Positions 3,635 to 41,380 of a DNA stretch of 64,000 nucleotides are shown here, in pieces (position 1 is the first letter of the stretch; each line of letters starts with the position of its first letter). Below the pieces are notes generated by a model that saw only the letters and a program-made list of their open reading frames with translations, was not told the origin of the DNA and did no database searches. Source of the DNA: a virus (taxonomy: Duplodnaviria > Caudoviricetes); IMG/VR virus record IMGVR_UViG_3300037589_000163, positions 10,016-74,015 of that record. One strand, 5' to 3'. A program made the position numbers and the translations under genes.

Positions 3635-3683
3635 TTTGGTTTTCTCCTGTTGAGAGGTGAGTGATGATCATGTGATCAGGCGA

Positions 3684-3704
3684 TCCAGAAAGGGCGTAAG
3701 CCCT
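3684..3704 (-). promoter_or_regulatory. Virion RNAP hairpin promoter, tetraloop variant
   Basis: TCC-AGAA-AGGGC-GTAA-GCCCT has the same spacing as the promoter at 1993-2012 but a 4-nt loop. Confidence 0.65.
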
Positions 3705-4274
3705 GTGTGACTGGGACAACAGGAAGTGAGGCGAGTGCTGAGCTGTGAAGAGGTGGGGTAGGGTGTGAAAGAGATGTGAGAAGACACCGGGGGGGGGTAT
3801 TTTCTTTTATCGAGATGCCCCGGTGTGAATAGTACCGAGCAGAACTATTATGAGATTACCCACACCCGAAAAAATCTGATAATATTATCTCTATAATGTT
3901 CTCTTAAAAATATATAATAATTATATATATAATGATTATCAAAACATTGTGTATTATTATCTATAAATATTATCTTTAATAATGAGGTTTTGTCTCCCCC
4001 TTAATGGTATGGGAGTTTGCCCCTGTAAACGACAATATCTCCCCCGCTTCTCTTTCTCTAGTATTTGAGAGGAGAAGGGTAGGCCTGGGGGGCAAAACAG
4101 ATAGGGATGGGGGGAAGCTACTCCACAGGGAGGGATCTTGTCTATCCCCGTCGGATCCTTTTGAAGGCCCGAAACTCTTGTCTATCTCCAGCGAAGCCCA
4201 AAAGCCCAGGGAAAGCCTGGGTTGTTGGAGAGATAGGGGCCAGAAAAAAATATCAGGAATTGCTCAGGAAAAAC
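3705..4274. other. Probable genome-terminus / collapsed terminal-repeat region
   Basis: Non-coding stretch where the early (-) and late (+) gene blocks diverge; contains a G9 tract (3789-3797), a very AT-rich block (~3860-3985) and a hairpin-rich block. The position is inferred from N4 genome organisation. Confidence 0.5.
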
Positions 4275-4520
4275 TCAGTGGAGGGTGGGTGAAACCATCT
4301 TGGGGAGCTCGATTGTGAAATATCCCTTCTCAGGGTTGCCACAGCAGACATAGGTAATCTCCTCTGTCTCGAGATCCTCGATCTCATCTCCGAACCGGTC
4401 ATAGGCCTCAATGATGGGAAGCATGGTGCCGTCGGTCATGACGACCTGCTCGGTGTTCAGATCGATGCCGAGGAATTCAAAAGGGAGGGGTTCGCTCTTG
4501 TCACCCGGGCCCCCGTTCAT
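4275..4520 (-). CDS. Hypothetical acidic protein
   Basis: Listed as 4275..4535; the ATG at 4520 has the better RBS context. Confidence 0.55.
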   Translation of the reverse strand: MNGGPGDKSEPLPFEFLGIDLNTEQVVMTDGTMLPIIEAYDRFGDEIEDLETEEITYVCCGNPEKGYFTIELPKMVSPTLH

Positions 4521-4672
4521 TCCTGGTTCCCCCACAGGGAGAGCTCAACGGCACTTAGATAATGCTTGATAATGGTGCTTGAAAATCTCACTTGATTATT
4601 CCTTCTAATGGTGATCTAAAACCTAAGTCCGATTTTTAGAAAATCGAAATCACATTAGCAAGGAAAATCATC

Positions 4673-4918
4673 ATGAATTTTGCAGATGCAGTGAACAGCC
4701 TCCACGACGGGAAGACCGTCGCCAGGAAAGGCTGGAACGGGAAAGGCATGTGGCTGGTCAAGGCTGACCGTGGAACTTTCGAGATTGACGGCAAGGTCGG
4801 CGGAAACCTGATCCCCTTCATCGTCATGAAGACCGCCGACAACAAGTTCGTTCCCTGGCTCGCTTCCCAGAGCGACGTCCTGTCGAATGACTGGGAAATC
4901 GTTGGGGAGGACTCCTGA
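4673..4918 (+). CDS. tad2: DUF2829 / Tad2-like protein (Thoeris anti-defence sponge family)
   Basis: MNFADAV...GKTVARKGWNGKGMWL...VPWLASQSDVLSNDWEIV is the DUF2829 signature; AAGGA RBS upstream. Confidence 0.85.
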   Translation: MNFADAVNSLHDGKTVARKGWNGKGMWLVKADRGTFEIDGKVGGNLIPFIVMKTADNKFVPWLASQSDVLSNDWEIVGEDS

Positions 4919-5586
4919 TGGCCGTCCGCGTATTTGAAGAAGACCTGATCGCTCATGCGAAAGCCAGGAATGCCGTCCGAGTTACCCTCCAGGATGTCGA
5001 GAACTCGATCGCCCACGAACGCTACTTCACCGCAGCCGAAGGTGCCTATGGCCGTGCAATCACGTCGAACGAATACCGTAAGCAGATCCCGGCGGCCCTC
5101 AACTACCTGACCTTCTGTGTCCTGGTGATGAAGAACGGTTTCACGGTGACAGGTGAATCAGCCTGTGCCGATCCTCGCAGCTTCGACCATAACATCGGCC
5201 AGGAGATTGCCCGCAAGAACGCGATCGGCAAGATCTGGATGCTGCTCGGTTTCCAGCTCCGCACCAAAATGTTCGATGAAGAGCAGCGTCTCGAGCAGAT
5301 GGCCTTCCAGCCTTCCGGCGACATGGTCACCTATGTCGGCACGAAAGTCGTCAATGCGCGGCCGATGAATCGTCAGGCCTACAATGACCTGCGTGGGTGG
5401 AAGCTTCCGGACGATGAAGACGGATCCGACGAGGGTTACCTGGTCGAATACACCGACCGCAAGGAAGTCCCTCCTCTTGTGCAGGGGTTCAAGGGATACA
5501 TCTCCTGGTCTCCGAAAGAGGTCTTCGAGAACGCCTATGAACCGGTGGCCGGCGAGAGGAACGTTTATCAGGAGAGCCTCCTGTGA
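4918..5586 (+). CDS. Fusion: N4 gp49/Sf6 gp66-family domain (probably Acb4-like) plus C-terminal YxGTK...GYLVEY...SWSPKxVF domain
   Basis: N-terminal half has LTFCVLVMKNGFTVTGESACADPRSFDHNIGQEIARKNAIGKIW. C-terminal half has YVGTKVVNARPM...DEGYLVEY...YISWSPKEVFENAY. Start overlaps the stop of the previous gene (TGATG). Confidence 0.8.
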   Translation: MAVRVFEEDLIAHAKARNAVRVTLQDVENSIAHERYFTAAEGAYGRAITSNEYRKQIPAALNYLTFCVLVMKNGFTVTGESACADPRSFDHNIGQEIARKNAIGKIWMLLGFQLRTKMFDEEQRLEQMAFQPSGDMVTYVGTKVVNARPMNRQAYNDLRGWKLPDDEDGSDEGYLVEYTDRKEVPPLVQGFKGYISWSPKEVFENAYEPVAGERNVYQESLL

Positions 5587-5909
5587 GCTTCCTCATTTTC
5601 CTCTTCGTGTTCGCCGTTCTGACCTTCTTCCAGAATGCAGTCTTCACCGCGGTATCCCGATCCAGGAACTCCGGCGATGTCTTCTACCACTGGAAATGGT
5701 CGCTGCTGTCGAACAGCATCTGGTTCATCGCCCAGATCTTCATCATGAAAATGATCTGGGACGCGATCAATGACAGTTCCTACTGGAAGATCGCGGCCGC
5801 CGGCTGGGTGTACGTCATCACCACATCGAGCGGATCGGCGTGGATGATGTCCAGGATGCTGAAGAGCGAGCAGGGGAAGAGGCGGGTCGGGGCTGGTTTG
5901 CAGCCTTGA
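5583..5909 (+). CDS. Small multi-pass membrane protein (3-4 TM)
   Basis: GTG start overlaps the upstream TGA; hydrophobic helices; contains FQN..FT.VSRSRNSG and a basic GKRRVG tail. Confidence 0.75.
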   Translation: MSFLIFLFVFAVLTFFQNAVFTAVSRSRNSGDVFYHWKWSLLSNSIWFIAQIFIMKMIWDAINDSSYWKIAAAGWVYVITTSSGSAWMMSRMLKSEQGKRRVGAGLQP

Positions 5910-6090
5910 ATCACTCGGTACACCGGGCCGGGCAGCCCAGGAAGGAATAGGCGCCCGGCCCGTAGTCCCTCAGCGGTGGAAACCCACAAAACACCGCGAG
6001 GAAAGATAATAGAAAATTGATTTTTACAAATCATCTCGTAATATTATGAGATAATGAATATCATAAAAATGATCTGAGGCAATAGAGAAT

Positions 6091-6915
6091 ATGAGTACTC
6101 CGTCCCTTTTTAATACCCCACCCCTTTTTAAGGATAATTCGGAGGTCTCCCAGGCGCCGGAGGCGCCACAGCATGTGGAGGAGCCGCAGGCGCCGGCTGT
6201 CGAGAAGAACCCGGCAATGACCCCCACGATCGGACTGATCACCGAGAATGATCTCAAGAGCGCTCTGCCAGCCACCCTGAGATCCTCCGTCAGCCAGTCC
6301 CTGGTCGACAAGGTCAACAGGATCTCAAGTGACCCGATCGCAGCGGAGAACATCCGCAATAATTTCGTCAGCTACACATCGGTGATGAAGGAAGGCCGCT
6401 TCAAGATCGAGGATTACCTCAATGCGGTGGCTTACGTTTCCTACAAGCTGATGGGGTACAACAACGAGGAATCTTACGCGAAGACCTTTCCGCAGCGTTA
6501 CGCGGACCTGCTCGCGAAGAACACCTCCAAGAAGGACATCTCGGCCTATGTGTCGGCGTATCACCGCGGCAAGCTGGTGAACCTGATCATGGAACAGTCC
6601 CTGGTTCCCTCCTGGGTCCTAAATCAGGATCTCTTTCAGAAAGCGCTCAACGTGCAGGCCGAACTGATGGCGACGGCCACCAGTGAGAAGGTGCGTACCG
6701 ATGCCGCCAACTCGATCCTTACCCACCTCAAGAAGCCTGAAAAGGACTTCCAGCTGAACATCAACACGGAAGATTCCTCCGGCATGCGGGAGATGCGGGA
6801 CACTCTTTCCCAGCTGGCGGCCCAACAGAGGCAGATGATCGAACAGGGTCAGATGAAAACGATCGATGTCGCGGCAGCTCGTCTCGTCAACAAAAAGGAA
6901 GACGACGATGTCTGA
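6091..6915 (+). CDS. N4 gp69-like protein (putative terminase small subunit)
   Basis: 274 aa directly upstream of TerL; YLNAVAYVSYKLMG and SEKVRTDAANSIL patterns. Confidence 0.75.
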   Translation: MSTPSLFNTPPLFKDNSEVSQAPEAPQHVEEPQAPAVEKNPAMTPTIGLITENDLKSALPATLRSSVSQSLVDKVNRISSDPIAAENIRNNFVSYTSVMKEGRFKIEDYLNAVAYVSYKLMGYNNEESYAKTFPQRYADLLAKNTSKKDISAYVSAYHRGKLVNLIMEQSLVPSWVLNQDLFQKALNVQAELMATATSEKVRTDAANSILTHLKKPEKDFQLNINTEDSSGMREMRDTLSQLAAQQRQMIEQGQMKTIDVAAARLVNKKEDDDV

Positions 6916-8542
6916 GGCGCTCGAAACGATCCTGGCCAGCGGCCGCAACATCATCCGGAAAGAGCTGGATGAATGGCTCGACGAGGTTGATTACCAGACA
7001 CTCAATGACAACAGCTACATCCCTTCGGAATTCTCCCTGGTCTTCATGAACTTCATCAAGCTGGTGAATGGAGAAGAAGGAGAAAGCCACAAGACACCGC
7101 CGGTCCACCTCAAGATGCTCGACAAGCTCTCGAGCTCGACTTCAGAGAATGTGGTCAATTTGTGTTTCCGTGGTGCAGCGAAGACCACAATTTTCGCCGA
7201 GTACCTGTTCCTGTTCATTGCTCTCTACGGGTATCTCCCCAACTTCGGGAAGATTACCGGCGCCATCTACGTGTCCGACTCCATGGAGAACGGCGTGAAA
7301 TCGATGCGGAAGAACATCGAATTCCGTTATGAAAACTCCGACTTCTTGAAAGAATGGATCCCTTACGCAAAGTTCACGGACAACTATATCGAGTTCGTCA
7401 ATCGTGACGGTCACCGGTTCGGTATCAAGATGTTCGGTGCTCAAACCGGTATCCGCGGTACCAAGATTTTTGGTAAGCGGCCGGTGCTCGCGGTACTCGA
7501 TGACTTGCTCGACGATGATGACGCCAAGTCGCCGGCAGCCCTGAAGTCGATCAACGACACGATCTACAAGGGCATCAATCACGCCTTGGACCCAACAAGG
7601 CGAAAGATCATCTTCAATGGCACGCCCTTTTCAAAAGACGACCCAATGGTGGAAGCCGTTGAATCGGGAGCCTGGGACGTCAATGTGTGGCCGGTCTGTG
7701 AAAGATTCCCGTGCTCCAGGGAAGAGTTCTGCGGTGCCTGGGAGGATCGATTCAACTTCGATTACATCCTGAAGCAATACGAAGACGCCGTGCTCAACGG
7801 GAAGGTCGAGGCCTTCATGCAGGAGTTGATGCTGCGGATCTCCTCCGAGGAAGAGCGTCTGGTCCAGGATGCGGAGATCAAGGAATACTCCCGGGCCCAA
7901 CTTCTCAACAATACAGGCTCGTTCAACTTCTACATCACAACGGACTTTGCCACCTCGGACAAACAGTCTGCCGACTATTCAGTCATCTCGGTGTGGGCTT
8001 TGAACTCGAACGGGGATTGGTTCTGGGTCGATGGTGAATGCGAACGCATGACCATGGACAAGTCGATCAATCATCTCTTCCGTCTGGTTCAGAAATACCG
8101 GCCGCAATCCGTCGGCGTGGAAGTGTCGGCTCAGCAGAAGGCATTCATCAAGTGGCTTCAGGGAGAGATGATGCATCGGAACATCTGGTTCAATTTTGCA
8201 TCGTCGGAGAAGTCGGGTGAGCCTGGTATTCGTCCAGTGGTCAACAAATTGACCCGCTTCAACCTGGTTGTGCCCCTGTTCAAGGCCGGCAAGATGTTTT
8301 TCCCCCAGGAAATGAAAGCCAGCAAGATCATGGGTCTGTTCTACGGCCAGCTGCGATTGGCAACCCGTAACGGCTTGAAAGGCAAAGACGACTGCATCGA
8401 TACGATCTCGATGCTGATGTACCTCAATGCCTGGAGACCAAGCGAAAAAGCCCCAAAAATGATTGGACACAACGGCGGTCCGGAATGGGATGAAGACGAA
8501 GAAGTCGAGCAGGTATCTGCTTTGTCCTCTTACATTGTTTGA
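6908..8542 (+). CDS. terL: Terminase large subunit (N4 gp68-like)
   Basis: CFRGAAKTT (Walker A), LAVLDDL (Walker B), TDFATS..ADYS and KDDCIDTISML nuclease motifs. Start reassigned to MSEALE at 6908. Confidence 0.93.
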   Translation: MSEALETILASGRNIIRKELDEWLDEVDYQTLNDNSYIPSEFSLVFMNFIKLVNGEEGESHKTPPVHLKMLDKLSSSTSENVVNLCFRGAAKTTIFAEYLFLFIALYGYLPNFGKITGAIYVSDSMENGVKSMRKNIEFRYENSDFLKEWIPYAKFTDNYIEFVNRDGHRFGIKMFGAQTGIRGTKIFGKRPVLAVLDDLLDDDDAKSPAALKSINDTIYKGINHALDPTRRKIIFNGTPFSKDDPMVEAVESGAWDVNVWPVCERFPCSREEFCGAWEDRFNFDYILKQYEDAVLNGKVEAFMQELMLRISSEEERLVQDAEIKEYSRAQLLNNTGSFNFYITTDFATSDKQSADYSVISVWALNSNGDWFWVDGECERMTMDKSINHLFRLVQKYRPQSVGVEVSAQQKAFIKWLQGEMMHRNIWFNFASSEKSGEPGIRPVVNKLTRFNLVVPLFKAGKMFFPQEMKASKIMGLFYGQLRLATRNGLKGKDDCIDTISMLMYLNAWRPSEKAPKMIGHNGGPEWDEDEEVEQVSALSSYIV

Positions 8543-8683
8543 TTACTGAAAATGTGATGCACATTTTCTGGCTATTATCCAGAAAATAATCGTATATAAT
8601 GGCCTGAGATTTTTGGATCACTCGTGCAATTAATCACGAGGACGCCCCATCAGCTCTACAATCCGAACATATAAGGACAGCAA

Positions 8684-28587: not shown

Positions 28588-31500
28588 ATGGTTGATAAAG
28601 TCAATCCGGCACTCTCGGCAAAAGGTCCTCGAGTGGCAAGCCAGCCGGAAACGGTTTCTGAAGCGCAAAAACTCCTTCAAGACATCGCCCAGATCAACCA
28701 GGCCACATCTGACCCGAATGCCATGGCGGCAATGAATATCTCCCGTGAACGGGGGAACTCCCTGACAGGCGACAACGCCGTCATCCAGGATTATTCGACC
28801 CTGACACCCGTACAGTTTCAGAACCGCTACGGTATGGATGCCTATGACCAGATGGTGGCCGCCGGTATCGGAGCAGCTCATGCCAGAGACCTGGCCGGTA
28901 GCAGCCGTGATCTCGGACAGATTGCCAGAGATTCGGCGCTTGATGTCGCCAACGGTGCGTTGGGCGGTATCGGGGGTCTCAATGACTTTCTGATCCGTGG
29001 TACGGTCGCTGGCCCGATCGGGGACAGGCTTCTCCAGAAAAACGCGGAAAACGTCCAGGGTGGTCGGGAATTCATCGACTCTTTCAAGACGACGCCGACG
29101 AAGCGGCTCGACTATGTCGACAGCATTCGGACCGAGTTGGATCGGATCGATAATGAAAAGCTGACCAAACAGGATGCCAGCGACGACCAAGGCATTGTCG
29201 ACTCTTTCCGCACATACGGGAAGTCCATCCTTCGGGATGCAGGGGCCGGCGTGGAAAGGTATGCTGAAGATCCTTCCCGTCTTGGTTCCGATGTCGGGGA
29301 AGGTGTTGGTTCGCTGCTTCTTGGTGGTGCCGCTTCCAAAGCTCTTTCGGTCGGTGCTTCTGGAGTGGTCAGAGCCACAGCTCCCACCTCGGCAACTTCC
29401 AGGTTCGGCGCAGAGGCCGTTGATGCCGCAATTCAGCGTGCTGCTTTCCCGTTGTCGATTGGCGCCATGGAAGGCGGTGGAGCATCGACCCAGGCAATTC
29501 TGGAAGTCATGGAAATGCCGGAAGAGGCTCTTCTCGAACAGCCGGCTTATCAGGAAATGCTCAGCGAAGGTTTGTCGCCGGCAGATGCACGTAGCCGGCT
29601 GGCTGCTCGCTCCGGTGCCATTGCTGCATCGATCGCCGCACCAGTCGCAGCTGCAACTTCGAAGCTCGTCTCTCGCTTTGAGCAGGCACCTTTCTCGGGT
29701 GGTTCCGGAAGTGTGGTCGGCAACAGTGCAAGAGAGTTTGTCGAAGAAGGTATCCAGTCCGGTGCAGGAGAGCTCGCCGGGAACATCGGTTTGAAGTTCT
29801 CAGGAGCTGACCAGGACGCAAGTCTCGTTGAGGGAGTTGGTTCCGCATCGGTGCAGGGTGCAATTGCAGGAGCAGGCACGGCCGGAGCAATTCAAGGCCC
29901 GAGCGCTGTTCTGCGGAATGCTGCAAAAGCAGCAGGATCCACTTTCAAATTTGCCGGCGACACTGTCAAGAAGCGTGGCGAAAAGATCCTTGCCAACATT
30001 TCCAAGGAGTCGGCCGTCTCCGAAGAGAGCCTGGCTCCGGCACTGGAAGCAGCAACGACCCAGGCTACGTCCGTGGGAGAGGGTCTTCGCAAGCTGGCCA
30101 CAGAGAACAGCACAAACGACGCCTCGGTCGAAGATTACATCTCCCGGGTGGAACGGGCCGTGCAGACAGACGAACAGGATCTGTACCTCATTCCTGACAG
30201 CATGGGCCCTGTTCTGACGCAGATCCAGCAGGAAACTGGCCGAGTACCCAACCGCTTCGAAACGCTGACCGTGGCAGCAGCCACAGCCAACAACGAAGCT
30301 CTGAGCCAGGAAGAAAGGGTTGCCGCGGCAACTTTCCTTCTCAAGCACATCGAGAACAACAAAAAGCTGTTCACCGAGGATTTCCCCGAATTCCTGGACA
30401 ATGTTCCCCATGATCGCCCGGAGTTCCAGGCATTCGAGGGATACGCCGGGATCCTTTCGACAATCGAACAGGTACCTGCAATTCAGCAGGCCATCGGTTG
30501 GGCTCGACAGGAAATGCAAGCGCCGGAAAGCGATGTCTCGAAAGTCGATCTGAATTCGGATGATGGACGGAAGATTGTTGAGAGAACAGTCGAACTTGCG
30601 ACAGTTGCTCCCCAGGCCATCAACCTGAAGGCAGCAGAAGACATTCTCTTCCAGGCCGACGAGGGCACGCTGAACCTTTCCCCGGAGCGTCGTCGCATTC
30701 TCCGTGGCGCCACGTCCTTGATCAACGCTGCTCGAGCTTACGCTGCACAGGTCAGGGTGATGGAACCAGGTGTTCTGGAAGAACAGTCGGAAGACCTCCA
30801 GCAAGAGCTTGATGAAACCCGTGATCGTGACGAGATGATGGAATTCATCGGCAGGCAGATCGAAAAGGACGGTGGTCCGAAGGCTCACCAGACTTCGCTG
30901 AGAGATCATGTTGCAGGCATCTCCCTTGCAGCGAGCCAGGGAGACATGAAGACCGCACGTCGCAAAGCGCAACGGCTCGTGATGTTCGCCATGTCGCATG
31001 CCAACAAGGTCAGCGCCTTGAGCCAGTCTATCCGAAACGGTGACGGCAAGAACGTGCCTTACAAAGCGTTGGCGGCTTCAGACGAATTCTACACCAACAA
31101 GAAAGGTGTCGGTGTTCGCATCGGCAATCCTGGTTCCGAACGCTTTGCGCGCAAGGTTCAGGCAGAAGCAATGGCAATCGCTCAGTTGGCGAATGACATC
31201 AGCAACCAGTATCCCGAATTTGGTCTGCGCCAGGTCGAAGTTTCGGACCTTGGCTTGCAGAATGTTGAAGTCGGACAGAGGGAGCCCGCTCCCGCCGAAC
31301 AGACAGAACTTCCCCAGGCTACCACAGCCGAGCAGGTTCAGGTTCGTCAGGAGGAGCTCCCTCTTCCGCGTTCTCAGCCTGCCCAGGAGCCTTCGCAAGC
31401 AACATCGGAGGAGACGTCCGTTGATGCGAGCTCGACCGTGGCGGCTGAGAAAGTGGTTTCGGAAACAGTGGATGAAGCCACCGCCGGCCCAGAAGATACA

Positions 31501-34500
31501 GGGAGCGGGCCGGCAGCGGCTTCGACCTCGACAGAATTGCAGGGGGGGTACTACCCTGCCGAGGTAACCGATCAGAGTTCTGACCGGGTTTCGGAATTGC
31601 TTGATGGTGTGTCTGAGGACGTTGATTACCGTCCTACGACTGCTGAGGAATATCCGGATCTCGTGGCACCGAATGGGAACAACTGGTTCCACAAGTCGTT
31701 CCGTAGCCCGGAAAACCTGAAGTCTCGTGTGGTCTGGTTGACCAACCCGATCAAGGATTTCAAGAGGATCCTGAGCAAGTCGAGTGAACTGGTTTCCTTC
31801 ATGGGGAACCCGGATCTTCGGTATGATGTGAATGGTCAGGATGCTGCGGGTTTCCGCAAGCTCCTCTCCCTGGCCGATCCTGCGTTGGAAGCGATCGAGA
31901 ATCGTTTGAAGGCCCGTCTCAAGAAGGACGGGCTTCTCGAAAAGATCGGCCAGGGGTTGGAAGTCAACCGGTTCCGGGATCTCCGTGTTCTGAACCTGAT
32001 GCGCCAAGATGGCACGGGTTACAACACTCAGCTCGTGGAGACGGCAGTCATTGCTGGTCTCGACTGGGCTATCAACATGAGTTCCCGGGCTGCCCGGATG
32101 ACTGTCAGTGAAGTTGCTTCCATCATGGGAGTCGATGAGGCTGATGCGGCTCCCTATGTGGAGGAGTTCAACCGCGGCATGTCGATGGACATTGCCAAGC
32201 GTTCCCTGGCCGATCGAATCGTCCAGTTCTGGGGCGTTGAACCCGAAAAAAGTGCTCGTGATGGCCTGACCAAGGGGATTCCCGAGGCCATGGCTGCTGA
32301 AGTGCTGCATGGCCTGGAGGCTGCCGGCCTGCTTGAACTCGGTATTGAAAAGAAGGATGGCGAAGACAAGCGTCTCGCTTTCCCACACCTGACCGAGAAG
32401 AAATTCAACCGCGTGCTGTTCGATACCCGGACGGAAGAAATGGAAGGATTGATCCGCAGCCTGGATGGCAAGCATGACTTGCTTGCCGACATGGTTCTGG
32501 TGAACCGTGAAGTTGAAGATTTCAGCATCGGTGAACCGGTGACAGACATCGATCAGCGTCAGCTTCGCAACCCGATGGTCGCTCTTTCCAACCAGCAGAA
32601 AAAGACCCTGGAGCACGTCCAGAGCACGCCGTATTTCCCGAACCAGGTTGTCTATGATTTCTATCAGACGCTTGGTGAAGAAGCCTATGTGACGATGATG
32701 AGTGGTCACCCCTACCAGAAGGGTGACCTGGAAAAGACCCACGTCGAAATGGGTTTGAACAGGATCCATTGGGAGTCCATCAAGGGACGTCAGCGTGGTT
32801 TGGTCAGTGATTTCCGTAATGTAACCAAGCAGATGACGGCTGTTCGTAGGAAGGGAGAAAACGTCCCGACCTACTACAAGCACCACATCAACAAGCTTGG
32901 TCGTACCCAGATGGCTGGCCTCAGCAATCCGCAGACTTCGAAGCTCGCTCGTGAGATCTTTATGCCGACACGCTCGGAGCTGGACTTGTCTGAGAATGCT
33001 CCGGATATGGACAAATTCCTGATGACCGTCGGTCAGGGCATAGGCCTGAAAACCGAAAAAGAAACTCGAGCCGACATCGTGATCAAGGTCATGGAAAAGA
33101 CCATGACGGAAGGTGGAGAATTCTACCAGACAGTCCAGAACCTCAAGTCCTGGCTCCAGCAGCGTGAGAATGACCAGGGACAGGATATTGACCTGGGAGT
33201 GTTCGAGGATCTCCGTTCGCACGGTCTTTCGGATCATGGCCTGCACTCGCTCATAGCGGTTGCCCGCTACGAGCTCGCCTCCGAAACCGGGGGCGATCTG
33301 AGCAAGTTCGAGGTGTTCAACTATCTCGAGGCTGACGGCAAGACCAATGGTCCGATCAACGCCCTGATGACGCTGGCCGCCGGCAAGATCACTCCTGCCT
33401 GGCTCAACGCTGTAGGCAAGGGTGGTGCTTTCTTTGGTCGGTTGAACAAGACACTCAACAGCCACGAAGACAAGGTTGACCTCTACGAAGAGAGCTCGAC
33501 CGAAACCCAGGTTCAGATTGTGGAACTCAACGCAGCACTGGCTGAAAGTGACGAGAGTTCACATGAACTGTTTATTCGGTTCAAAAGGTTCCTATCGGCT
33601 CTGGAAGCCAATGTCGAAATCGACAGCAACGGTGAGATCACCATCAAGCGTGGTCTGACCAAGAACCCGTTGACCATCACCATTTATGGATCAGGCGCCA
33701 AGGGTATCGCCGGCAAGGTCACAGACGAGATTGTGAATGCAATCTACGAGAACCTTTCCAAGTCGATCCAGGATGGAAAGCATGCTGGTGAGTTGATCTA
33801 CGGTGACGGCAAGGGATCTGACTTCATGTCGGATCTGGTTGAGTTGACCTCGAAAGTCGTTCTTCGCAGCAAGGACAGCGAAGAATATTTCGTCATGGGT
33901 GAGACCAAGGAAATTGGCGGTTCCAGCCAGAATTTCACGTTCAACAGGGAACAGTACAGCAACCTTCGTCAGAACGTTTTGACGTTCCTGGTCAATCCGA
34001 TGCGGTTGGCGATCGATAAGAAAGTCACTGGTCATGTTGGCCGGACGACTTCGGCTGTCCAGCAGGCAACCCAGATCCAGTCGATCTTCCTAAAGGGAAT
34101 GACGATCGATAAGGTGACCCGTCGTCTTGCTGAAATGAAGAACGACCCGGACAAGTTCTCCTACCGGGAAGGTGAGTTCCTGAACCGTAACGAGCAGCAG
34201 GATATTCAAGATAATCTCAAGCGATTTTCTCCAATAATCGACACCGGCACTCAGGCCTACATGATGTCGGGTGGAGAACGGAGTGACCTGTTTGAGAAGA
34301 CCGTCGTGGATATCGACGGCAAGCCGGTTGAAGTGACAATGCCGGAAACGTTCTCGAGGTCCTTGTCCGGTGATATGAAGACGCCAGCCTATTTCTATGG
34401 GCCCACGCTCGCTGGTGTTCGTGCCATTCCGACCCTGGTCGTTGGATCCGGTGATGGACAGATGATGCTCAACTTCCTCTCCGGAAACCCGGAAGCGGCT

Positions 34501-37500
34501 CGTCGTGTGCTGCATGTGTTCGATGGTCTGAACATGCCGGCTGATGCGATCGACGATTATTCGCGTCTCGTCAACCAGGCTGTTTTCCAGACCTGGACTT
34601 CAGACAAGAACCCGGTCCGGGCCGCCTATGAAAGTTTCAAGGCGTTCGTCGAAGCTTCCCCGATTGAAGAGCTTTTCCCTGGCGATCAAATGAATGATCA
34701 GCAGAAGCAGGCTCTCCTGGAGTTGAGTCAGGTGGCCCTGGATCGCTTTGAAGTGGCTGAAGGCGATATCATCGACACCGAAACGGTCAGTCAGCTTCTG
34801 AACCTGACACTCGATAGGCTCGAGAGACTGGCCAACGAGACGGATGCACGTCGCCAGGTTTACGCTGAATTCGATTTGTCGGTCGACCAGATGGCTTCGG
34901 GTGAAAGCCCGTTCGTGAATGAAGGTTCGATCAAGCTGGAAGAAAACACCAGCATCGAAGACATCGCCTATGAAATGCAGGCGCGTTACGAAGAGATCCT
35001 GACCAACCAGACGAAGCCAAAGACCGAGAAAACCAGTGTCTCCGGTGTGGAATCTCCCAACCAGAAACTGGAGGAGTTCATCCAGTCCGTGGCAAACACG
35101 AACGAGAACGGTGCTCTTGTCCTGGATCCGGATCAGTTGTCGGCAATGCCTGACAAGATCCTGAATTCCTCGCAGAAGCAGGTTTTGTCTGCCGCGGTGA
35201 AATCCCTGGCCGGCGCCGGTTATAGATTGGTCTTTGGAACACCAAGCGTGCTCGATGCCTGGGAACAGGCCAACAACGCTGACCGGTTCCTTCCTGGTTC
35301 CAACAATGGTTACGGCAAGATCGATCCGATTTCGAAGGTAGTCCTGGTCTCGAATACCTCGGGTGAGACCTTGGTTCACGAGCTCGTTCATGCCGCGACT
35401 TTCATGAAGGTCAAGGCAGCGTTCGAAGATCCCAAGGCAATCCCCAAGGAAGACCTGGAAGCTGTGGCCCGTATTGAAGGCCTCATGGCCGAGTGGTTGG
35501 CCCAGGATTTCAGTGAATTTGACGAAGCAGCACAGGATGCCCGCCGGCAGGCTGTGGCGACAGTCGAAGGATACCATCGCCGCGGACAGACTGCTCAGGC
35601 GGTCAATGAGTTCATGGCCTGGGTTTTGGGTAACCAGAACCTCAGCCGTGCTGCTCTCTTGACGAAGGTCAAGAACCCGCTTGCGAAGATCGCTCGTAAT
35701 GCCCTGGCAGCCTTGAAAAAGCTGGTCTTCGGTACCGACAAAGTTGATCCGGTGCATGATGATCTGATGTCAAACTTGCGCTTCAACACCCAAGTTCTCA
35801 TGGCTACACCGACGCCGATCGAATTGCTGCGCCAGGATTACAACGACATGGCGCTCTACCAGTCGGCAACATTTGGCAACGACCAGCGGATTTCCGAACT
35901 GAGAGATCTGTTTGGTCGCAAGATCATTGCCTGGGTCAAGGGTAGCGGAACAGACGTCATCAACCGTTTGCAGAGCTCCGGCCGGGCAGTCGAAGCGCTG
36001 GATGCCTACAAGGCAGGCTTCAACACAGCCAGGGCTTTCGGATACCACTTTGACGGTCTCGGAAATATGCAGGCCAATTCGACCTTTGCTTCCATTCAGG
36101 CAGCGCTGATGACCGAAATGGATTTGAATTCCAATTCGCTGTCCAGGATTGAAGAGCTCTACAATCACGTCATGGGACAGTTGTCGCCGAGTTCCTTCCA
36201 GGAAAAGCCGGATCAGAACGACCCGAACGATCTTTACCAGGCCCAGGGAAAGTTCAACGTGTTGTCTGGTATCTACATCAATGAGACCGACAAACTCGGC
36301 CGGTCTTCCCTGATGTCGTCTTTCCTGGCCCTCGCCATGGTCGATGACGGTTTCCGCAAGATCCTTGCTGGGATGAACAAGCCTGAAAACGAACAGAGCC
36401 AGGACCGCACTCTTGACGGTCTGCTCGAGAACGCAGCAAATGCTGGTCTCGATCGTCTGTCCCTGTATCTGGCAGGAGAGAAGAAGCAGGACAAGTCAGT
36501 GCAAGAAGCACTCGACAGCCTGACCATTGCGATGATCGAAAATGTCGGTGATCAGCGTGCATTCGTTGAACAGCAGACAGAGACTTTCTTCGAACAGGTC
36601 GAGGAAAAAGTCGCCAATTCGATCCAGGAGACCAGTGCCAGGGTTGCAGAGAAGTCGGCCGATGTTGCGAGGAACTCGAACAGCCGAACCGTCAAGGCCG
36701 GCGCCACGATCGTCAATGTCTTTTCGACGATGATCAATGAGCAGAAGTCGAGTGACGCAATGCTTGGTATGGTCAGCTGGCTCAACCAGAAAGAAGGTAT
36801 GGAACTGATCCGGGACACTGTCGGCAACTTCATTGGCCGAACCCGGGAGAATGCCGGCGTCTTCGATATGATCTCGAAGGTCCGGGCCCAGGTTCAGCAG
36901 GTTCGTCAGAACTTCCGTGAGGATCTTCCGGTCAAGCTTTCGAAGGAGTTCTCCAGGCCGCCGACTGCAAAGCAGTGGACTGCGATGTATAACGCCCTCG
37001 GACGATCGGATATTGCTTCCCTGGTTCGTTCCTATGGTGTCGGTAAAACTGTCGATCTCGTTGCGGATACGTCAAAGATCGATGCTGAAGTGCAGAAGCT
37101 GGAGAGACAGATCCAAGCAGACAATGCCAGCCGCTTCCCGAAGATCAAAGAGAAGTCCTTGCAGCTTGCCAAGTTCATGATGACCGGCGAGCACGGTCCT
37201 CAGCTGCTTCGTAATGCCGAAGCAATCGCTCGTCTCCTGGGAGAGCGTGGCCTTGCCTTGCGTACCGCGCCTTCGCAAGAGCTCGTTGAATCGATCGACA
37301 AGCTGGTGACGCTGTATGCTCTCCAGGGGCTCGATGACAACAGTCGGGCAGACGTGACAACCTTGCTTGGAAACACGAAGGACAGGTCCGGAGTTGAGTT
37401 TGTCACCAGTTATCTGGTTGGTCAGCGCAATGATGAGCTGGCCAAGGTAGGAAGCAACAAGACTGCATCTTTTAACCACTACAAAGGACACATCCCATCG

Positions 37501-39228
37501 GAAGTCCAGCAGGGTGGTTCATTGAGGATTGCTTCCGAAACAAGCCACGCAGAAATGGTAAGCAGGGGATATACCCGTGTGGCATCGTATGATGGATCTT
37601 CGGCCGATCGGACCCGCGGCAAACGAGCCTACTACTTTGCTCCGGTGTCGAGCCAGGCACCCTTCAGCCAGGGTGTCATGCAGACCGTTCACCAAACGGT
37701 GTCCGGTATTGATCCGGAAACAGGTTTCACGATCGGAGAAGTGATGGGTGGTCGCATCGAGAATATCGATGTGGTGAAAATCATTGCTCGTCAGGTTGGA
37801 AACCAGAAGACAACCAACGAAAATCTTCTCCCTGTTTTTGGAGATAATGGGGAGATCGTGGCTTTCGAAAGGGGTGCTGATGTTTCGAAGCTCCAGGGGC
37901 TGAACCGCAGCACGGATCTGTCGCAGATGATTGGTGTTTGGCGTGGTCGTCAGGCGGAAGAGCTTCTTGCAACGGAAGTGAACAAGCAGCTCGTCGACGC
38001 CCTGAAAGACACCTGGGAAGAAGGCCGCAAGGCCGGTCGGAAAGATGAGTTCGTGAACATCGCTGCTCTTGGTTCAAAGAAGAGCGATGACCGCATCCTT
38101 TCGGAAGCAGCTCGTCTCATTCCGAACCAGACCAGGGATTACATCAAGGAAGTCTTCGGTGGCGATCAGTTCATGGTTCGCAGGGACATGCTGCTTGACA
38201 CATTCGGAGCCCGCCAGGCTTCGGTGGGTGATCTGTTTACCGGTAAGACCCGGTGGAACCAGAAGGTCGTCAATGAGTTCGAGAAGGTCGCTGTAGGCAT
38301 TTTCGGAAAGCATGCCTATGTCGGAGCTGTCTCGGCCGAGAAGAACATCCAGGAGCTTGTCTCGAACGCCAAGACCATGATTGTGGTCAAGTCCGGTATC
38401 GTGCCGGCAGCGAACATGATCTCGAACCTGTTTCAGTTGCTCAACCGCGGTGTTCCGCTTCGCCATATCCTGGCCGGCGTTCCTGCAAAGACGGTGGAGA
38501 TCAACTCCTATATCAAGAACAGGCACAGGGAGATCGGTATCGAAGCCGATCTACGTGCAGCAATGGGTCGTCGTGACCTGGTTCAGATAAGGCGCCTGGA
38601 GAACCAGTTGAAAGGAATCCAGGACGGTTATCGTCGGATGAGCATCTGGCCGTTGATTGAAGCGGGTGAGTTTTCCGCAATTTCAAATGGACAGGTGACT
38701 GCCGAAGATCTGGCCGTGGCCGATGGCAAGTGGACTGATTGGATCGAGAACAAGATCAACACACTGCCTGGCGGTTTCCGTACAGCTGCACGATATGGGT
38801 TAATCACCCGGGACACTGCCTTGTTCCAGGGTCTGGCCAAAGCGGTTCAGTACGGAGATTTCGTGGCAAAGGCAGTGCTCTACGACGACATGACGCGCCG
38901 CAAAAAAGCCAAGAAAGAAGACGCTATCGCCACGGTGAACGAGGCTTTCGTCAACTACAACAAGTTGGCCGGCCGGGATCGTCAATACCTGGAAAGCGTT
39001 GGGCTCCTGTGGTTCTGGAACTACAAGATCCGGATCATGAAGGAAGCAGTTCACATGCTCCGACACAATCCTCTGAGGTCCCTGTTGATGACAGGGGTAC
39101 CGGTGGGAACTCCCGTAGGAGACAACATCGTCTCTGTCATCCTGGAAGATCGACTTGGATGGTCGATAGGACCTGGAATGGGGTGGAACAGTGTGAGCCT
39201 CAACCCCTGGATCAACCTTACACGTTGA
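28588..39228 (+). CDS. Virion-encapsidated single-subunit RNA polymerase (N4 gp50-like)
   Basis: 3546 aa with no Cys seen; NKLGR, EADGKTNGP (motif A), RGLTKNPLTITIYGSG (motif B) and LHVFDG (motif C). Confidence 0.97.
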   Translation: MVDKVNPALSAKGPRVASQPETVSEAQKLLQDIAQINQATSDPNAMAAMNISRERGNSLTGDNAVIQDYSTLTPVQFQNRYGMDAYDQMVAAGIGAAHARDLAGSSRDLGQIARDSALDVANGALGGIGGLNDFLIRGTVAGPIGDRLLQKNAENVQGGREFIDSFKTTPTKRLDYVDSIRTELDRIDNEKLTKQDASDDQGIVDSFRTYGKSILRDAGAGVERYAEDPSRLGSDVGEGVGSLLLGGAASKALSVGASGVVRATAPTSATSRFGAEAVDAAIQRAAFPLSIGAMEGGGASTQAILEVMEMPEEALLEQPAYQEMLSEGLSPADARSRLAARSGAIAASIAAPVAAATSKLVSRFEQAPFSGGSGSVVGNSAREFVEEGIQSGAGELAGNIGLKFSGADQDASLVEGVGSASVQGAIAGAGTAGAIQGPSAVLRNAAKAAGSTFKFAGDTVKKRGEKILANISKESAVSEESLAPALEAATTQATSVGEGLRKLATENSTNDASVEDYISRVERAVQTDEQDLYLIPDSMGPVLTQIQQETGRVPNRFETLTVAAATANNEALSQEERVAAATFLLKHIENNKKLFTEDFPEFLDNVPHDRPEFQAFEGYAGILSTIEQVPAIQQAIGWARQEMQAPESDVSKVDLNSDDGRKIVERTVELATVAPQAINLKAAEDILFQADEGTLNLSPERRRILRGATSLINAARAYAAQVRVMEPGVLEEQSEDLQQELDETRDRDEMMEFIGRQIEKDGGPKAHQTSLRDHVAGISLAASQGDMKTARRKAQRLVMFAMSHANKVSALSQSIRNGDGKNVPYKALAASDEFYTNKKGVGVRIGNPGSERFARKVQAEAMAIAQLANDISNQYPEFGLRQVEVSDLGLQNVEVGQREPAPAEQTELPQATTAEQVQVRQEELPLPRSQPAQEPSQATSEETSVDASSTVAAEKVVSETVDEATAGPEDTGSGPAAASTSTELQGGYYPAEVTDQSSDRVSELLDGVSEDVDYRPTTAEEYPDLVAPNGNNWFHKSFRSPENLKSRVVWLTNPIKDFKRILSKSSELVSFMGNPDLRYDVNGQDAAGFRKLLSLADPALEAIENRLKARLKKDGLLEKIGQGLEVNRFRDLRVLNLMRQDGTGYNTQLVETAVIAGLDWAINMSSRAARMTVSEVASIMGVDEADAAPYVEEFNRGMSMDIAKRSLADRIVQFWGVEPEKSARDGLTKGIPEAMAAEVLHGLEAAGLLELGIEKKDGEDKRLAFPHLTEKKFNRVLFDTRTEEMEGLIRSLDGKHDLLADMVLVNREVEDFSIGEPVTDIDQRQLRNPMVALSNQQKKTLEHVQSTPYFPNQVVYDFYQTLGEEAYVTMMSGHPYQKGDLEKTHVEMGLNRIHWESIKGRQRGLVSDFRNVTKQMTAVRRKGENVPTYYKHHINKLGRTQMAGLSNPQTSKLAREIFMPTRSELDLSENAPDMDKFLMTVGQGIGLKTEKETRADIVIKVMEKTMTEGGEFYQTVQNLKSWLQQRENDQGQDIDLGVFEDLRSHGLSDHGLHSLIAVARYELASETGGDLSKFEVFNYLEADGKTNGPINALMTLAAGKITPAWLNAVGKGGAFFGRLNKTLNSHEDKVDLYEESSTETQVQIVELNAALAESDESSHELFIRFKRFLSALEANVEIDSNGEITIKRGLTKNPLTITIYGSGAKGIAGKVTDEIVNAIYENLSKSIQDGKHAGELIYGDGKGSDFMSDLVELTSKVVLRSKDSEEYFVMGETKEIGGSSQNFTFNREQYSNLRQNVLTFLVNPMRLAIDKKVTGHVGRTTSAVQQATQIQSIFLKGMTIDKVTRRLAEMKNDPDKFSYREGEFLNRNEQQDIQDNLKRFSPIIDTGTQAYMMSGGERSDLFEKTVVDIDGKPVEVTMPETFSRSLSGDMKTPAYFYGPTLAGVRAIPTLVVGSGDGQMMLNFLSGNPEAARRVLHVFDGLNMPADAIDDYSRLVNQAVFQTWTSDKNPVRAAYESFKAFVEASPIEELFPGDQMNDQQKQALLELSQVALDRFEVAEGDIIDTETVSQLLNLTLDRLERLANETDARRQVYAEFDLSVDQMASGESPFVNEGSIKLEENTSIEDIAYEMQARYEEILTNQTKPKTEKTSVSGVESPNQKLEEFIQSVANTNENGALVLDPDQLSAMPDKILNSSQKQVLSAAVKSLAGAGYRLVFGTPSVLDAWEQANNADRFLPGSNNGYGKIDPISKVVLVSNTSGETLVHELVHAATFMKVKAAFEDPKAIPKEDLEAVARIEGLMAEWLAQDFSEFDEAAQDARRQAVATVEGYHRRGQTAQAVNEFMAWVLGNQNLSRAALLTKVKNPLAKIARNALAALKKLVFGTDKVDPVHDDLMSNLRFNTQVLMATPTPIELLRQDYNDMALYQSATFGNDQRISELRDLFGRKIIAWVKGSGTDVINRLQSSGRAVEALDAYKAGFNTARAFGYHFDGLGNMQANSTFASIQAALMTEMDLNSNSLSRIEELYNHVMGQLSPSSFQEKPDQNDPNDLYQAQGKFNVLSGIYINETDKLGRSSLMSSFLALAMVDDGFRKILAGMNKPENEQSQDRTLDGLLENAANAGLDRLSLYLAGEKKQDKSVQEALDSLTIAMIENVGDQRAFVEQQTETFFEQVEEKVANSIQETSARVAEKSADVARNSNSRTVKAGATIVNVFSTMINEQKSSDAMLGMVSWLNQKEGMELIRDTVGNFIGRTRENAGVFDMISKVRAQVQQVRQNFREDLPVKLSKEFSRPPTAKQWTAMYNALGRSDIASLVRSYGVGKTVDLVADTSKIDAEVQKLERQIQADNASRFPKIKEKSLQLAKFMMTGEHGPQLLRNAEAIARLLGERGLALRTAPSQELVESIDKLVTLYALQGLDDNSRADVTTLLGNTKDRSGVEFVTSYLVGQRNDELAKVGSNKTASFNHYKGHIPSEVQQGGSLRIASETSHAEMVSRGYTRVASYDGSSADRTRGKRAYYFAPVSSQAPFSQGVMQTVHQTVSGIDPETGFTIGEVMGGRIENIDVVKIIARQVGNQKTTNENLLPVFGDNGEIVAFERGADVSKLQGLNRSTDLSQMIGVWRGRQAEELLATEVNKQLVDALKDTWEEGRKAGRKDEFVNIAALGSKKSDDRILSEAARLIPNQTRDYIKEVFGGDQFMVRRDMLLDTFGARQASVGDLFTGKTRWNQKVVNEFEKVAVGIFGKHAYVGAVSAEKNIQELVSNAKTMIVVKSGIVPAANMISNLFQLLNRGVPLRHILAGVPAKTVEINSYIKNRHREIGIEADLRAAMGRRDLVQIRRLENQLKGIQDGYRRMSIWPLIEAGEFSAISNGQVTAEDLAVADGKWTDWIENKINTLPGGFRTAARYGLITRDTALFQGLAKAVQYGDFVAKAVLYDDMTRRKKAKKEDAIATVNEAFVNYNKLAGRDRQYLESVGLLWFWNYKIRIMKEAVHMLRHNPLRSLLMTGVPVGTPVGDNIVSVILEDRLGWSIGPGMGWNSVSLNPWINLTR

Positions 39229-39252: not shown

Positions 39253-39609
39253 CTATTCAGGGAGCGGCGAAAACTTTGGCTTTGCCGCCTGCTTGGCTCT
39301 GATCTTTTCGACCTTGGTCCAGCATCGATCTAGCTCGATGTGACCGGCCTCAATCATGTCGATATCTCGAGCAAGGCAGAGAGCCGCGAGAGTGTTCATG
39401 ACGCCGCCGACCTCCTGCTTAATCTCGCCTTGGTCTCGCCCATAGACGTAATCGACCAACTGCAAGGCTTCCTCTTTCGTGCAGTCACACGCCTGAGCAA
39501 GCTCCAGAGCCTCCTCCAAAAAGCGGTGATTTCGTTCTGTCTCATCCCGAGCAATCACTATGCCGAAGCATGCGATTAGCCACCGATCAACGCGCTCTTG
39601 AAATTTCAT
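39253..39609 (-). CDS. MazG-like NTP pyrophosphohydrolase
   Basis: RFLEEALELAQ...KQEVGGV acidic helical pattern. Confidence 0.6.
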   Translation of the reverse strand: MKFQERVDRWLIACFGIVIARDETERNHRFLEEALELAQACDCTKEEALQLVDYVYGRDQGEIKQEVGGVMNTLAALCLARDIDMIEAGHIELDRCWTKVEKIRAKQAAKPKFSPLPE

Positions 39610-39833
39610 TTCAACCTCCTGATTAGTTGCGCCCGGATCAGATCCGGGCGCAGATAGATGCCGGGTTCTGTCGGGAATGGTGAATTGGGATCGCCGTAGT
39701 AGATCAGCCCTTCTGCGGCCATGTCGCGCCGGACCATAGGTCCGATCGGATCATTGTCGTCATCGAATGCCTCTACTGAAAGCGGCCGCTGGCCAGTGTT
39801 GTTGATGTAATCGACGTACTTTTGATGCTTCAC
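39606..39833 (-). CDS. Hypothetical protein
   Basis: 75-aa ORF coupled to the next gene by an ATGA overlap. Confidence 0.65.
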   Translation of the reverse strand: MKHQKYVDYINNTGQRPLSVEAFDDDNDPIGPMVRRDMAAEGLIYYGDPNSPFPTEPGIYLRPDLIRAQLIRRLK

Positions 39834-39858
39834 GTTAGCCTCCGGGCTAGTTGGGTTG

Positions 39859-40398
39859 TTACGGTGCGAGATCTTTGAATCGCGCTAAGAACCGCATTTC
39901 CGCCATTTCTGGTGACCAGAATTTGACCTTCACCGGTGCAGCTTCTAGCTCATAGGTGTAACGCCATTTGTGGTTGTTACCCATTACTTGTTGCTGCTCG
40001 GCTGCCAGCATCCGAATGTCCATTTCCTTGACTGCCGGCGACATCTTTGCCGGAAGACCAAAGCGATCCGCAATTGCTGCTTCGACACGATCCTCGACAG
40101 CCATGTAATCCGGCAACATCATCTTCAGCGGTTTCGGCATATCGCAGATGAAAGCTTCTGCGGCATCATGCATCAACGCCTGGAAGGCGAGATCAGCCGG
40201 CATACAGTCGCTCATGAGAACGCAATGCTCCGCAACCGAATAGAAGCGCTGGCACTGTCCACCGAAACGGCAGGTGTTCGACAATCCCTTGGCAATATCT
40301 CCAATGGAGAAATTGCTCTGATCGGGACGATCGTAATTGAAATAGACACCGCTCGAAAGCAGGATCGTCGGCCCATTGTTATGTGACATATCGTCCAT
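39859..40398 (-). CDS. HD-domain 5'-deoxynucleotidase-like protein (YfbR/YfdR type)
   Basis: YSVAEHC, ALMHDAAEAFICDMPKPLK and DIRMLAAE motifs. Confidence 0.85.
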   Translation of the reverse strand: MDDMSHNNGPTILLSSGVYFNYDRPDQSNFSIGDIAKGLSNTCRFGGQCQRFYSVAEHCVLMSDCMPADLAFQALMHDAAEAFICDMPKPLKMMLPDYMAVEDRVEAAIADRFGLPAKMSPAVKEMDIRMLAAEQQQVMGNNHKWRYTYELEAAPVKVKFWSPEMAEMRFLARFKDLAP

Positions 40399-40422
40399 TG
40401 TTGGCCTCCGGCCTTTTCTGAA

Positions 40423-40677
40423 TCAGGTTGAGTAATCGAGGACAAACAGTCGTTCGGCATCGATCGGAACTGCGAGTGTGCCTGTGAAGTCATCTCCGGC
40501 CATACCTGGACCTGATTGGTTCACCCACTCTGTTTGAACTCCGTCGAAGTCGCTTTCTTGCTCTTCAAATTTCGAGAAATCGAAATCCTCCCGACGCACC
40601 AAACGTGGGAAGTAAACGTGTCCATTGACGTTCATTTCATCGCATACTGCGGCGATGATGCTGATTGGGTCTTTCAT
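40423..40677 (-). CDS. Hypothetical acidic protein
   Basis: Start reassigned to MKDPIS; contains WVNQSGPGMAGDDFTG. Confidence 0.6.
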   Translation of the reverse strand: MKDPISIIAAVCDEMNVNGHVYFPRLVRREDFDFSKFEEQESDFDGVQTEWVNQSGPGMAGDDFTGTLAVPIDAERLFVLDYST

Positions 40678-40690
40678 GATCAGCTCCGGT

Positions 40691-41354: not shown

Positions 41355-41380
41355 CGTGTGATCGACGTCAACGGCCTCTA

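Follow-up and report, generated by a model that had tools for sequence, protein, structure and literature searches.

Three overlapping genes at positions 4673-5909 of a viral genome raise the question of whether they form a single system for sequestering immune signals, or a sponge cassette to which an unrelated membrane-protein gene has become joined. The stretch analysed, hereafter the window, is 64,000 nucleotides long and covers bases 10016-74015 of the 74,015-bp IMG/VR virus record IMGVR_UViG_3300037589_000163, which is rated 100% complete. A first interpretation, made from the letters and translations without database searches (the sequence-only reading), proposed a multi-specificity sponge operon in which a second domain of gene 2 and the membrane protein encoded by gene 3 were additional anti-defence parts.

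The analysis favours a narrower account, to which a probability of roughly 0.72 is assigned. An N4-like (Schitoviridae-type) phage would carry at this locus a cassette of anti-signalling sponges in which a Tad2 module, an Acb4 module and a third module, domain X, are distributed over two genes, X being dimeric with a binding function of its own and gene 3 being independent. According to this account, the Tad2 protein would sequester glyco-cyclic ADP-ribose (gcADPR)-type signals of Thoeris defence in a conserved inter-protomer pocket, and the Acb4 domain would sequester the cyclic dinucleotides typical of the cyclic-oligonucleotide-based antiphage signaling system (CBASS). Domain X, of about 80 residues, would be an autonomous module placed by phages on or beside almost every sponge family; its possibly domain-swapped dimer would bind a further signal or a host component and would not be a handle only. 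Gene 3 would be coupled to the cassette in this lineage by chance, without being a working part of the sponge system.

Tad2 and Acb4 modules

Gene 1 (4673-4918, plus strand, 81 residues) carries the DUF2829/Tad2 signature that had been recognized from its translation. It matches Pfam PF11195 across the whole profile (positions 1-73 of 73) at E 4e-25, with 88.6 bits against a gathering threshold of 25, and seven solved Tad2-type sequences match it at E values of about 1e-13 to 1e-10. These include MoTad2 (9eib), 8v3e, HgmTad2 (8kbi) and SPO1 Tad2 (8sme), of which MoTad2 and 8v3e are the best. Besides the core of PF11195, the solved Tad2 proteins (8SME, 8KBI, 9EIB) have in common with gene 1 a GWNGKG loop and the gcADPR-pocket motif W-L-x-S-x-(S/T)-D. 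The contacts of HgmTad2 with gcADPR are W21, N22, G23, M76, A78, T82, V84, W87, L88, S90, T92 and D93, and the binding of 1''-2' gcADPR is lost in the W21A/N22A and S90A/T92A/D93A mutants (bioRxiv 10.1101/2023.11.15.567273). In the HMMER alignment to 8kbi, residues W21-N22-G23 of gene 1 fall on W21-N22-G23 of HgmTad2, and M52, V60, W62, L63, S65, S67 and D68 fall on M76, V84, W87, L88, S90, T92 and D93. Nine of the 12 contacts are identical and about ten are kept, the substitutions being T92 to Ser, A78 to Thr and T82 to Lys; the T82 contact is water-mediated in HgmTad2 (bioRxiv 10.1101/2023.11.15.567273). From its sequence, gene 1 encodes a short-form Tad2, very probably one able to bind gcADPR.

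The term short form refers to an insertion. In HgmTad2 the cyclic-dinucleotide pocket (R31/P32/D34/L36/F70/N85) is built on some 40 residues inserted after beta2 and before the core strand that follows, while SPO1 Tad2 has an insertion of 24 residues and does not bind cyclic dinucleotides. The corresponding HgmTad2 segment (residues 32-72; 39-41 residues) is reduced to about 15 residues in gene 1, and N85 aligns to a gap. Because this insertion is the shortest among the Tad2 proteins compared, a pocket of the HgmTad2 type is predicted to be absent, and 'multi-specificity' therefore describes the cassette as a whole, not gene 1. The proposal that several second messengers are sequestered is thus plausible, judging by the families present, for Thoeris and CBASS signals taken together, but not for cyclic dinucleotides bound by this Tad2. 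Some Tad2 homologs (e.g., MoTad2 and Tad2_71) additionally bind His-ADPR, cUMP/cCMP or N7-cADPR.

Gene 2 (4918-5586, plus strand, 222 residues) encodes a predicted Acb4-X fusion protein. Its residues 22-117 (4981-5268, plus strand) match PF13876 (N4 gp49/Sf6 gp66) at E 2.6e-30 with 105.2 bits (cut-off 27), and this is the family of Acb4 (Chang et al., bioRxiv 10.1101/2024.12.30.630793), as the sequence-only reading had proposed. An AlphaFold2 model computed with 52 homologs (predicted local distance difference test score, pLDDT, 93.8) shows two domains joined by a long helix, a layout shared by many of the 4,275 homologs of gene 2. The top structural match of the model in the PDB is SPO1 Acb4 (9e4w_A; Z 9.0, root-mean-square deviation 2.5 Å over 75 residues), followed by a next row at Z 6.5, and Foldseek ranks 1-10 are all chains of 9e4w. 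The modelled N-terminal domain accordingly has the alpha-beta-beta-beta-alpha fold, akin to that of dsRNA-binding domains, of solved Acb4. A profile of the 52 homologs aligns to 9e4w without gaps at E 2e-7; this entry was reached by the profile only, the single-sequence search of gene 2 against the PDB having returned no match.

The SPO1 Acb4 contacts with its ligand are K36, F48, E49, V56, Y57, F62, N63, I66, T70 and K81, and the numbering offset applied to 9e4w is valid because all ten sit on the expected letters of the chain. F48, F62 and I66 of the base pocket are identical in gene 2, V56 is replaced by Cys, and N63, a backbone contact, by Asp, so that three to four of the ten are kept. 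SPO1 Acb4 is itself a distant relative, with about 17-20% identity and a single domain of 96 residues that lacks X. The closest characterized relative is N4 gp48, at 33% identity. By profile and fold, the N-terminal domain of gene 2 is to be regarded as a member of the Acb4 family.

Phage N4 (EF056009) offers the nearest known counterpart of the cassette. Pfam models confirm that N4 gp48 is a PF13876 (Acb4) protein and that gp49 consists of X followed by PF11195 (Tad2). The same three modules therefore occur in both N4-like phages on two start/stop-coupled genes, in a different order: Acb4 and then X-Tad2 in N4, Tad2 and then Acb4-X in the window. The positions differ as well, the N4 pair lying just before the gene for the virion RNA polymerase (vRNAP) and the window pair between leftward early-like genes and the terminase module, and no homolog of gene 3 adjoins the N4 pair. 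Judged from its modules, the window cassette is a domain-shuffled gp48/gp49. The Pfam name of PF13876, 'N4 Gp49', corresponds to gp48 in GenBank numbering (locus L085, 2112-2965) and can mislead about the identity of Acb4. For N4 Acb4, experiments have shown c-di-AMP binding at 111 nM and the triggering of PanDA and Panoptes; Acb4 homologs whose phages infect Gram-negative hosts bound 3'3'-c-di-AMP as well (bioRxiv 10.1101/2024.12.30.630793).

Fusions of Acb4 with Sequestin or Tad2, as in Pseudomonas phage Ab09 gp59 and Pasteurella phage Pm86, likewise combine modules that cover Thoeris and CBASS. Unlike them, the window lacks a Sequestin domain and keeps Tad2 in its own gene: the Sequestin model PF21825 has no match at E <= 1 in the three cassette genes, and the Sequestin profile is empty across the 74-kb genome. 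Close relatives of gene 2 do add Sequestin as a third domain (Acb4-X-Sequestin). The cassette would be a further example of N4-like phages stacking sponge modules against several nucleotide-signalling defences.

Domain X and its sponge partners

The second domain of gene 2, X (residues ~135-213; 5320-5556, plus strand), is a companion of sponge domains without a family name. It belongs to no Pfam or NCBIfam family and matches phrog_9467 (E 4e-29) as well as phrog_872, where the match is to the N-terminal half and the C-terminal half is Tad2. An exhaustive HMMER search gathered 1,495 cluster representatives of the family at 50% identity (699 at E <= 1e-10), in which X is placed N-terminally, C-terminally or alone in proteins of 76-100 residues. 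It is present in 127 sequenced phages, N4 included. The recurrent Pfam partners among 141 X representatives are exclusively sponges: Tad2 (42), Sequestin PF21825 (40), Acb4 (30) and the Acb2/Tad1 hairpin (2). Having no Pfam entry, X was invisible to the Pfam-based screen of fusions by which Sequestin was found, and none of the seven sponge families listed in a 2026 review is X.

The association holds at the level of loci. In a survey that scanned 80 viral loci encoding relatives of gene 2, the window and a Mesorhizobium element (L003) with module profiles, 81 of the 82 loci have X next to a sponge module or in fusion with one, in at least 16 arrangements. The commonest, with a slash marking the boundary between genes, are X-Tad2/Acb4 (22 loci), X-Tad2 (16), Acb4-X-Sequestin (12) and Acb4/X-Tad2 (7), followed by Acb4-X (5) and the window order Tad2/Acb4-X (5, the window and four others); rarer module orders occur in several loci, and X stands alone in one. 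The complete set of X, Tad2 and Acb4 is found in about 38 of the 82. With the RyR-Tad protein described below, X accompanies five sponge families: Tad2, Acb4, Sequestin, Acb2/Tad1 and RyR-Tad. The suggestion that the coupled domain of gene 2 is an anti-defence part has in this way gained a very strong tie between X and sponge proteins.

The domain is also strongly conserved. About 25 of its residues are near-invariant, a set rich in aromatic residues and in Arg, Lys, Asp and Glu, and its motifs in gene 2 are GTK..A.PM.R..Y, EGYLVEY and GY.SWSPK.VF..AY. When the modules of the window are compared with those of N4, X is 56% identical to residues 7-75 of gp49, compared with 41% for Tad2 and 33% for Acb4. 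That X also occurs by itself, is fused promiscuously to five families of sponges and is strongly conserved argues for an autonomous function.

Folded alone, X is modelled as a small domain that is rich in beta structure and includes two short helices (pLDDT 90.2). Among solved structures the best Foldseek E value is 0.48, in a set that includes insignificant Tad2 rows, and VIA-align returns generic barrels of the CarD, Mfd, Tudor, SH3 and KOW type at Z <= 4.1. These matches are too weak to support a fold family or an RNA-polymerase-binding role, and neither was adopted. Likewise rejected was the possibility that X is a hidden duplicate of Tad2, Sequestin or Acb4, for which the HHalign probabilities are 0.2%, 0.5% and 0.1%, respectively.

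A link to a characterized protein was found in Pectobacterium phage CB1. The X profile matches residues 3-69 of CB1 gp68 at E 4e-10, and the matched region carries the A.PMT, EGYLV.Y and SWSP..VF motifs; the BFVD resource ties the X model to an RyR-domain protein of Yersinia phage TG1 (E 1.5e-4, TM 0.67). CB1 gp68 is RyR-Tad. Its N-terminal domain was described as having a fold whose function is unknown, as often forming a single open reading frame (ORF), and as a domain-swapped dimer in the crystal that contributes to dimerization (bioRxiv 10.64898/2026.06.04.730250). In CB1, which is N4-like, an X-family domain and a sponge domain are thus joined in one protein, as in gene 2; unlike in gene 2, the partner is an RyR-repeat gcADPR sponge and not Acb4, and the CB1 copy of X is divergent.

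What X contributes to these proteins can be explained in two ways. It may be a structural handle, a dimerization or stabilization domain for sponge oligomers that has no ligand or target of its own. This explanation, which we hold to be possible though doubtful, draws on the properties of the RyR-Tad domain, which swaps to form a dimer, contributes to dimerization and has no anti-Thoeris I activity alone, and on the lack of any match between X and a nucleotide-binding fold, the generic SH3/Tudor-like barrels being its only matches. Such a handle would, however, seem redundant, as Tad2, Acb4 and Sequestin oligomerize by themselves: Tad2 sponges are homotetramers with pockets at the protomer interfaces and Acb4 is a homotetrameric pinwheel. 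It would also be unusual for a mere interface to be better conserved with respect to N4 than its sponge partners (33-41%), or to retain so many near-invariant aromatic and charged residues.

The preferred account gives X, from its distribution and conservation and from the RyR-Tad dimer, a binding function of its own. One specific form of this idea, put forward tentatively, is that X is a new anti-defence family, either a dimeric sponge for a signal beyond those of Tad2 and Acb4 or a neutralizer of a protein component or of a guard system that senses sponges. Candidate signals could be His-ADPR, N7-cADPR, cyclic tri- or oligo-adenylates and Pycsar cNMPs. If true, this would explain both the fusion to at least five unrelated sponge families and the existence of stand-alone X. 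The domain is a worthwhile lead, and its study could bring to light either a sponge family that is new or an accessory principle general to sponges.

Gene 3 and the weighing of alternatives

Gene 3 (5583-5909, plus strand, 108 residues, GTG start) encodes a predicted small inner-membrane protein. Its hydropathy peaks at residues 1-25, 40-60 and 68-90 indicate about three hydrophobic segments; the first loop is rich in Arg (R/K-rich), and the C-terminal tail is basic. The sole PHROGs match is phrog_33664, a family of unknown function (E 5e-20). Pfam (DUF3413, E 0.07) and NCBIfam (E 0.07) gave no significant match, and the ESM Atlas returned only clusters of hypothetical viral proteins, together with a weak lead to DUF5698 (score 0.83). 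The family comprises at least 1,117 members of 105-115 residues, in which an invariant polar motif, QN..FTAVSRSRNS.D..YH, lies at the end of the first hydrophobic segment; 25 columns are invariant in 22 sequences.

The sequence-only reading had counted the membrane protein as an additional part of the system and expected the trio to recur in other phages. This expectation failed, as a gene 3 homolog lies within 3.5 kb in none of the 80 viral sponge loci, and a small membrane ORF of any kind directly follows the sponge genes in 5 of the 82 loci. Where the contexts of gene 3 homologs were sampled, seven of eight are unrelated to sponges, and the upstream neighbours in these seven are RecA, a dUTPase neighbour, a PAPS-reductase-like protein, a nucleoside deoxyribosyltransferase, a glutaredoxin-like protein and unknown genes. 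Most sampled homologs are as closely start/stop-coupled to the preceding gene as in the window (loci L004, L088, L089, L091 and L092), some of them after unknown genes of about 300 residues. The window layout is repeated once, in the Mesorhizobium element L003, where an Acb4-X-Sequestin gene is overlapped by a membrane gene and followed by a terminase module, and Rhizobium phage RHph_X2_28B has Acb4-X at the equivalent genome position without the membrane gene. The absence in 80 loci, the unrelated contexts and RHph_X2_28B indicate that gene 3 is no regular part of sponge cassettes. By this distribution it is best classed as an independently mobile early or middle membrane-protein gene of a large uncharacterized phage family, and the result warns against equating translational with functional coupling where accessory genes of phages are concerned. 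A single further sampled context hints at a sponge close to the family, that of a Methylosinus-associated phage contig (L092), in which the gene 3 homolog lies at 357-665 and a weak Acb2/Tad1-hairpin gene 2.3 kb upstream.

A gene of this kind may merely share the sponge transcript while acting elsewhere, as a holin-like protein of lysis timing or in superinfection exclusion. The topology of the product (108 residues, about three hydrophobic segments and a basic tail) resembles class I holins, and the annotation of phage CB1 indicates that small membrane proteins are common accessory genes of N4-like phages. Such a role is nevertheless unlikely. No endolysin or spanin neighbours gene 3 in the window or its homologs in the eight sampled contexts, where early or middle replication and nucleotide-metabolism genes are found instead; no holin family in Pfam, PHROGs or NCBIfam matches it, and 25 invariant columns in 22 sequences represent far better conservation than is usual for holins.

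A decidedly poorer case can be made for the three genes as one integrated system, with gene 3 as an additional anti-defence part that would, for example, counter effectors by which CBASS, Pycsar or Thoeris II disrupt membranes. In its favour, the start of gene 3 and the stop codon of gene 2 overlap (GTGA), a separate Shine-Dalgarno sequence precedes gene 3, L003 shows the same coupling with an Acb4-X-Sequestin gene, and the cytoplasmic loop and tail of the family are strongly conserved. Against integration, neither the homolog (0/80) nor a small downstream membrane ORF (5/82) is a regular feature of sponge loci, the sampled relatives among the at least 1,117 occupy replication and nucleotide-metabolism contexts and are often equally coupled there, and RHph_X2_28B carries Acb4-X without gene 3. 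Least probable of all is that gene 1 is an AcrIIA7-like anti-CRISPR protein and not a Thoeris sponge: HgmTad2 is AcrIIA7, gene 1 has matches to solved AcrIIA7 entries at E 1e-12 and X-Tad2 genes are annotated as 'anti-CRISPR protein' in several phage records, but the match is limited to the common Tad2 core, the 39-residue insertion is down to 15, the gcADPR pocket is kept and the top matches are the Thoeris sponges MoTad2 and 8v3e.

The account of a two-gene sponge cassette with an independent gene 3 has three points to reckon with that count against it. First, the guanine contacts of SPO1 Acb4 (K36 to Tyr, E49 to Thr) and its phosphate contacts (Y57 to Ala, T70 to Ile, K81 to Met) all differ in gene 2, so that a ligand can be proposed for its Acb4 domain only as a class, CBASS-type cyclic dinucleotides, from the family. 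Eight of eight diverse Acb4 homologs tested bound 3'3'-cGAMP (Chang et al., bioRxiv 10.1101/2024.12.30.630793), so the SPO1 contact residues are not strictly family-defining. Second, residues 1-86 of CB1 gp68 alone were inactive against type I Thoeris (bioRxiv 10.64898/2026.06.04.730250). This fragment is the only X-type domain tested in the literature, against one defence system and in a divergent copy; as that copy has lost several near-invariant residues of X, among them those of the RGW motif and the last Tyr, its inactivity is hardly informative on canonical X. Third, gene 3 is start/stop-coupled to gene 2 both in the window and in its closest relative, L003, and a lineage-specific functional link between the two genes may exist.

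Junctions, flanks and genome setting

The overlaps and hairpins described from the sequence alone are present. At the junction of genes 1 and 2 (CTCCTGATGGCC) the TGA and ATG codons have one base in common (TGATG), and at that of genes 2 and 3 (CTCCTGTGAGC) GTG and TGA overlap as GTGA. Shine-Dalgarno-like words (AAGGAAA, GGGGAGGA and CAGGAG for genes 1, 2 and 3) lie 7-13 nucleotides upstream of each start, and the GTG start of gene 3 agrees with the N-termini of its homologs. Two GC-rich hairpins end the cassette (5924-5962 and 5968-6001, plus strand), with a minimum free energy of -46 kcal/mol (z = -4.3) that was equalled in none of 200 shuffles. They have no U-tract, and the terminator scan gave no call for them. 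They are followed by a spacer of 22.5% GC (6002-6090) and the terminase module (6091-8542).

The promoter-like stretch postulated upstream corresponds to an AT-rich spacer (4536-4672) with 35.8% GC, compared with 56.8% in the operon and 53.1% in the window. Scans of 4200-6300 for sigma-70 consensus sites and intrinsic terminators found nothing except a site at 6110-6138, so that 'promoter-like' is here a description of base composition alone. The region of this spacer folds as single-stranded DNA with z = -3.4, and 27 nucleotides before the start of gene 1 it contains a perfect hairpin, CGATTTT-TAG-AAAATCG (4630-4646), with a 7-bp stem and a 3-nucleotide loop. N4-type vRNAP early promoters have the same geometry. 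The genome has 38 perfect hairpins with stems of at least 6 bp and 3-nucleotide loops, compared with about 17 in shuffled sequence, and the other 37 share no consensus; the hairpin was not adopted as a promoter of this type. From its layout, the cassette looks like a separate transcription unit with a putative promoter and terminator.

The genome itself has an ORF of 3,546 residues at 28588-39228 that resembles the vRNAP of N4-like phages. Its nearest annotated relatives are the rhizobial Schitoviridae Rhizobium phages RHph_X2_28B and RHph_X3_15, and the related N4-like element L003, with N4 Gp1 and Gp2 domains, is harboured by a Mesorhizobium chromosome. A DNA-level search found no close sequenced relative, its sole match being the conserved Acb4 core at about 70% identity. 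By profile scan, the Tad2, Acb4 and X modules each occur once in the genome, and Rfam and tRNA scans of the window gave no matches.

In N4-like phages the hot spots for Tad2, Tad3, Acb4, Sequestin and RyR-Tad sit between the primase and vRNAP genes. The counterpart of this published anti-signalling interval in the window is 39300-44700, between vRNAP and a PriCT_1 primase-like gene (44722-46890), and its genes encode a YfbR-like nucleotidase, a dUTPase and an AAA_24 protein as well as three products without a Pfam match (41019-41483, 42574-43131 and 43141-43896), which could have additional accessory or anti-defence roles. The cassette is found elsewhere, flanked by the leftward early-like genes and the terminase, a placement shared with the rhizobial relatives, and its position indicates that a sponge hot spot can lie outside the primase-vRNAP interval.

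Between the minus-strand early-like genes and the cassette are 640 bp without a credible ORF (3635-4274). In the core of this gap (3841-3990), which has only 11-24% GC, TATTATCT-like words recur, and at 3910-3928 the core forms a perfect hairpin, ATATATAA-TAA-TTATATAT. No tRNA or Rfam match was found in the gap, while the equivalent gap of RHph_X2_28B has four tRNAs; it may be a regulatory or origin region. Two further perfect hairpins with 3-nucleotide loops, at 8548-8568 (9-bp stem) directly after the terminase large-subunit gene and at 39628-39652 (11-bp stem) directly after the vRNAP gene, are likely transcript boundaries.

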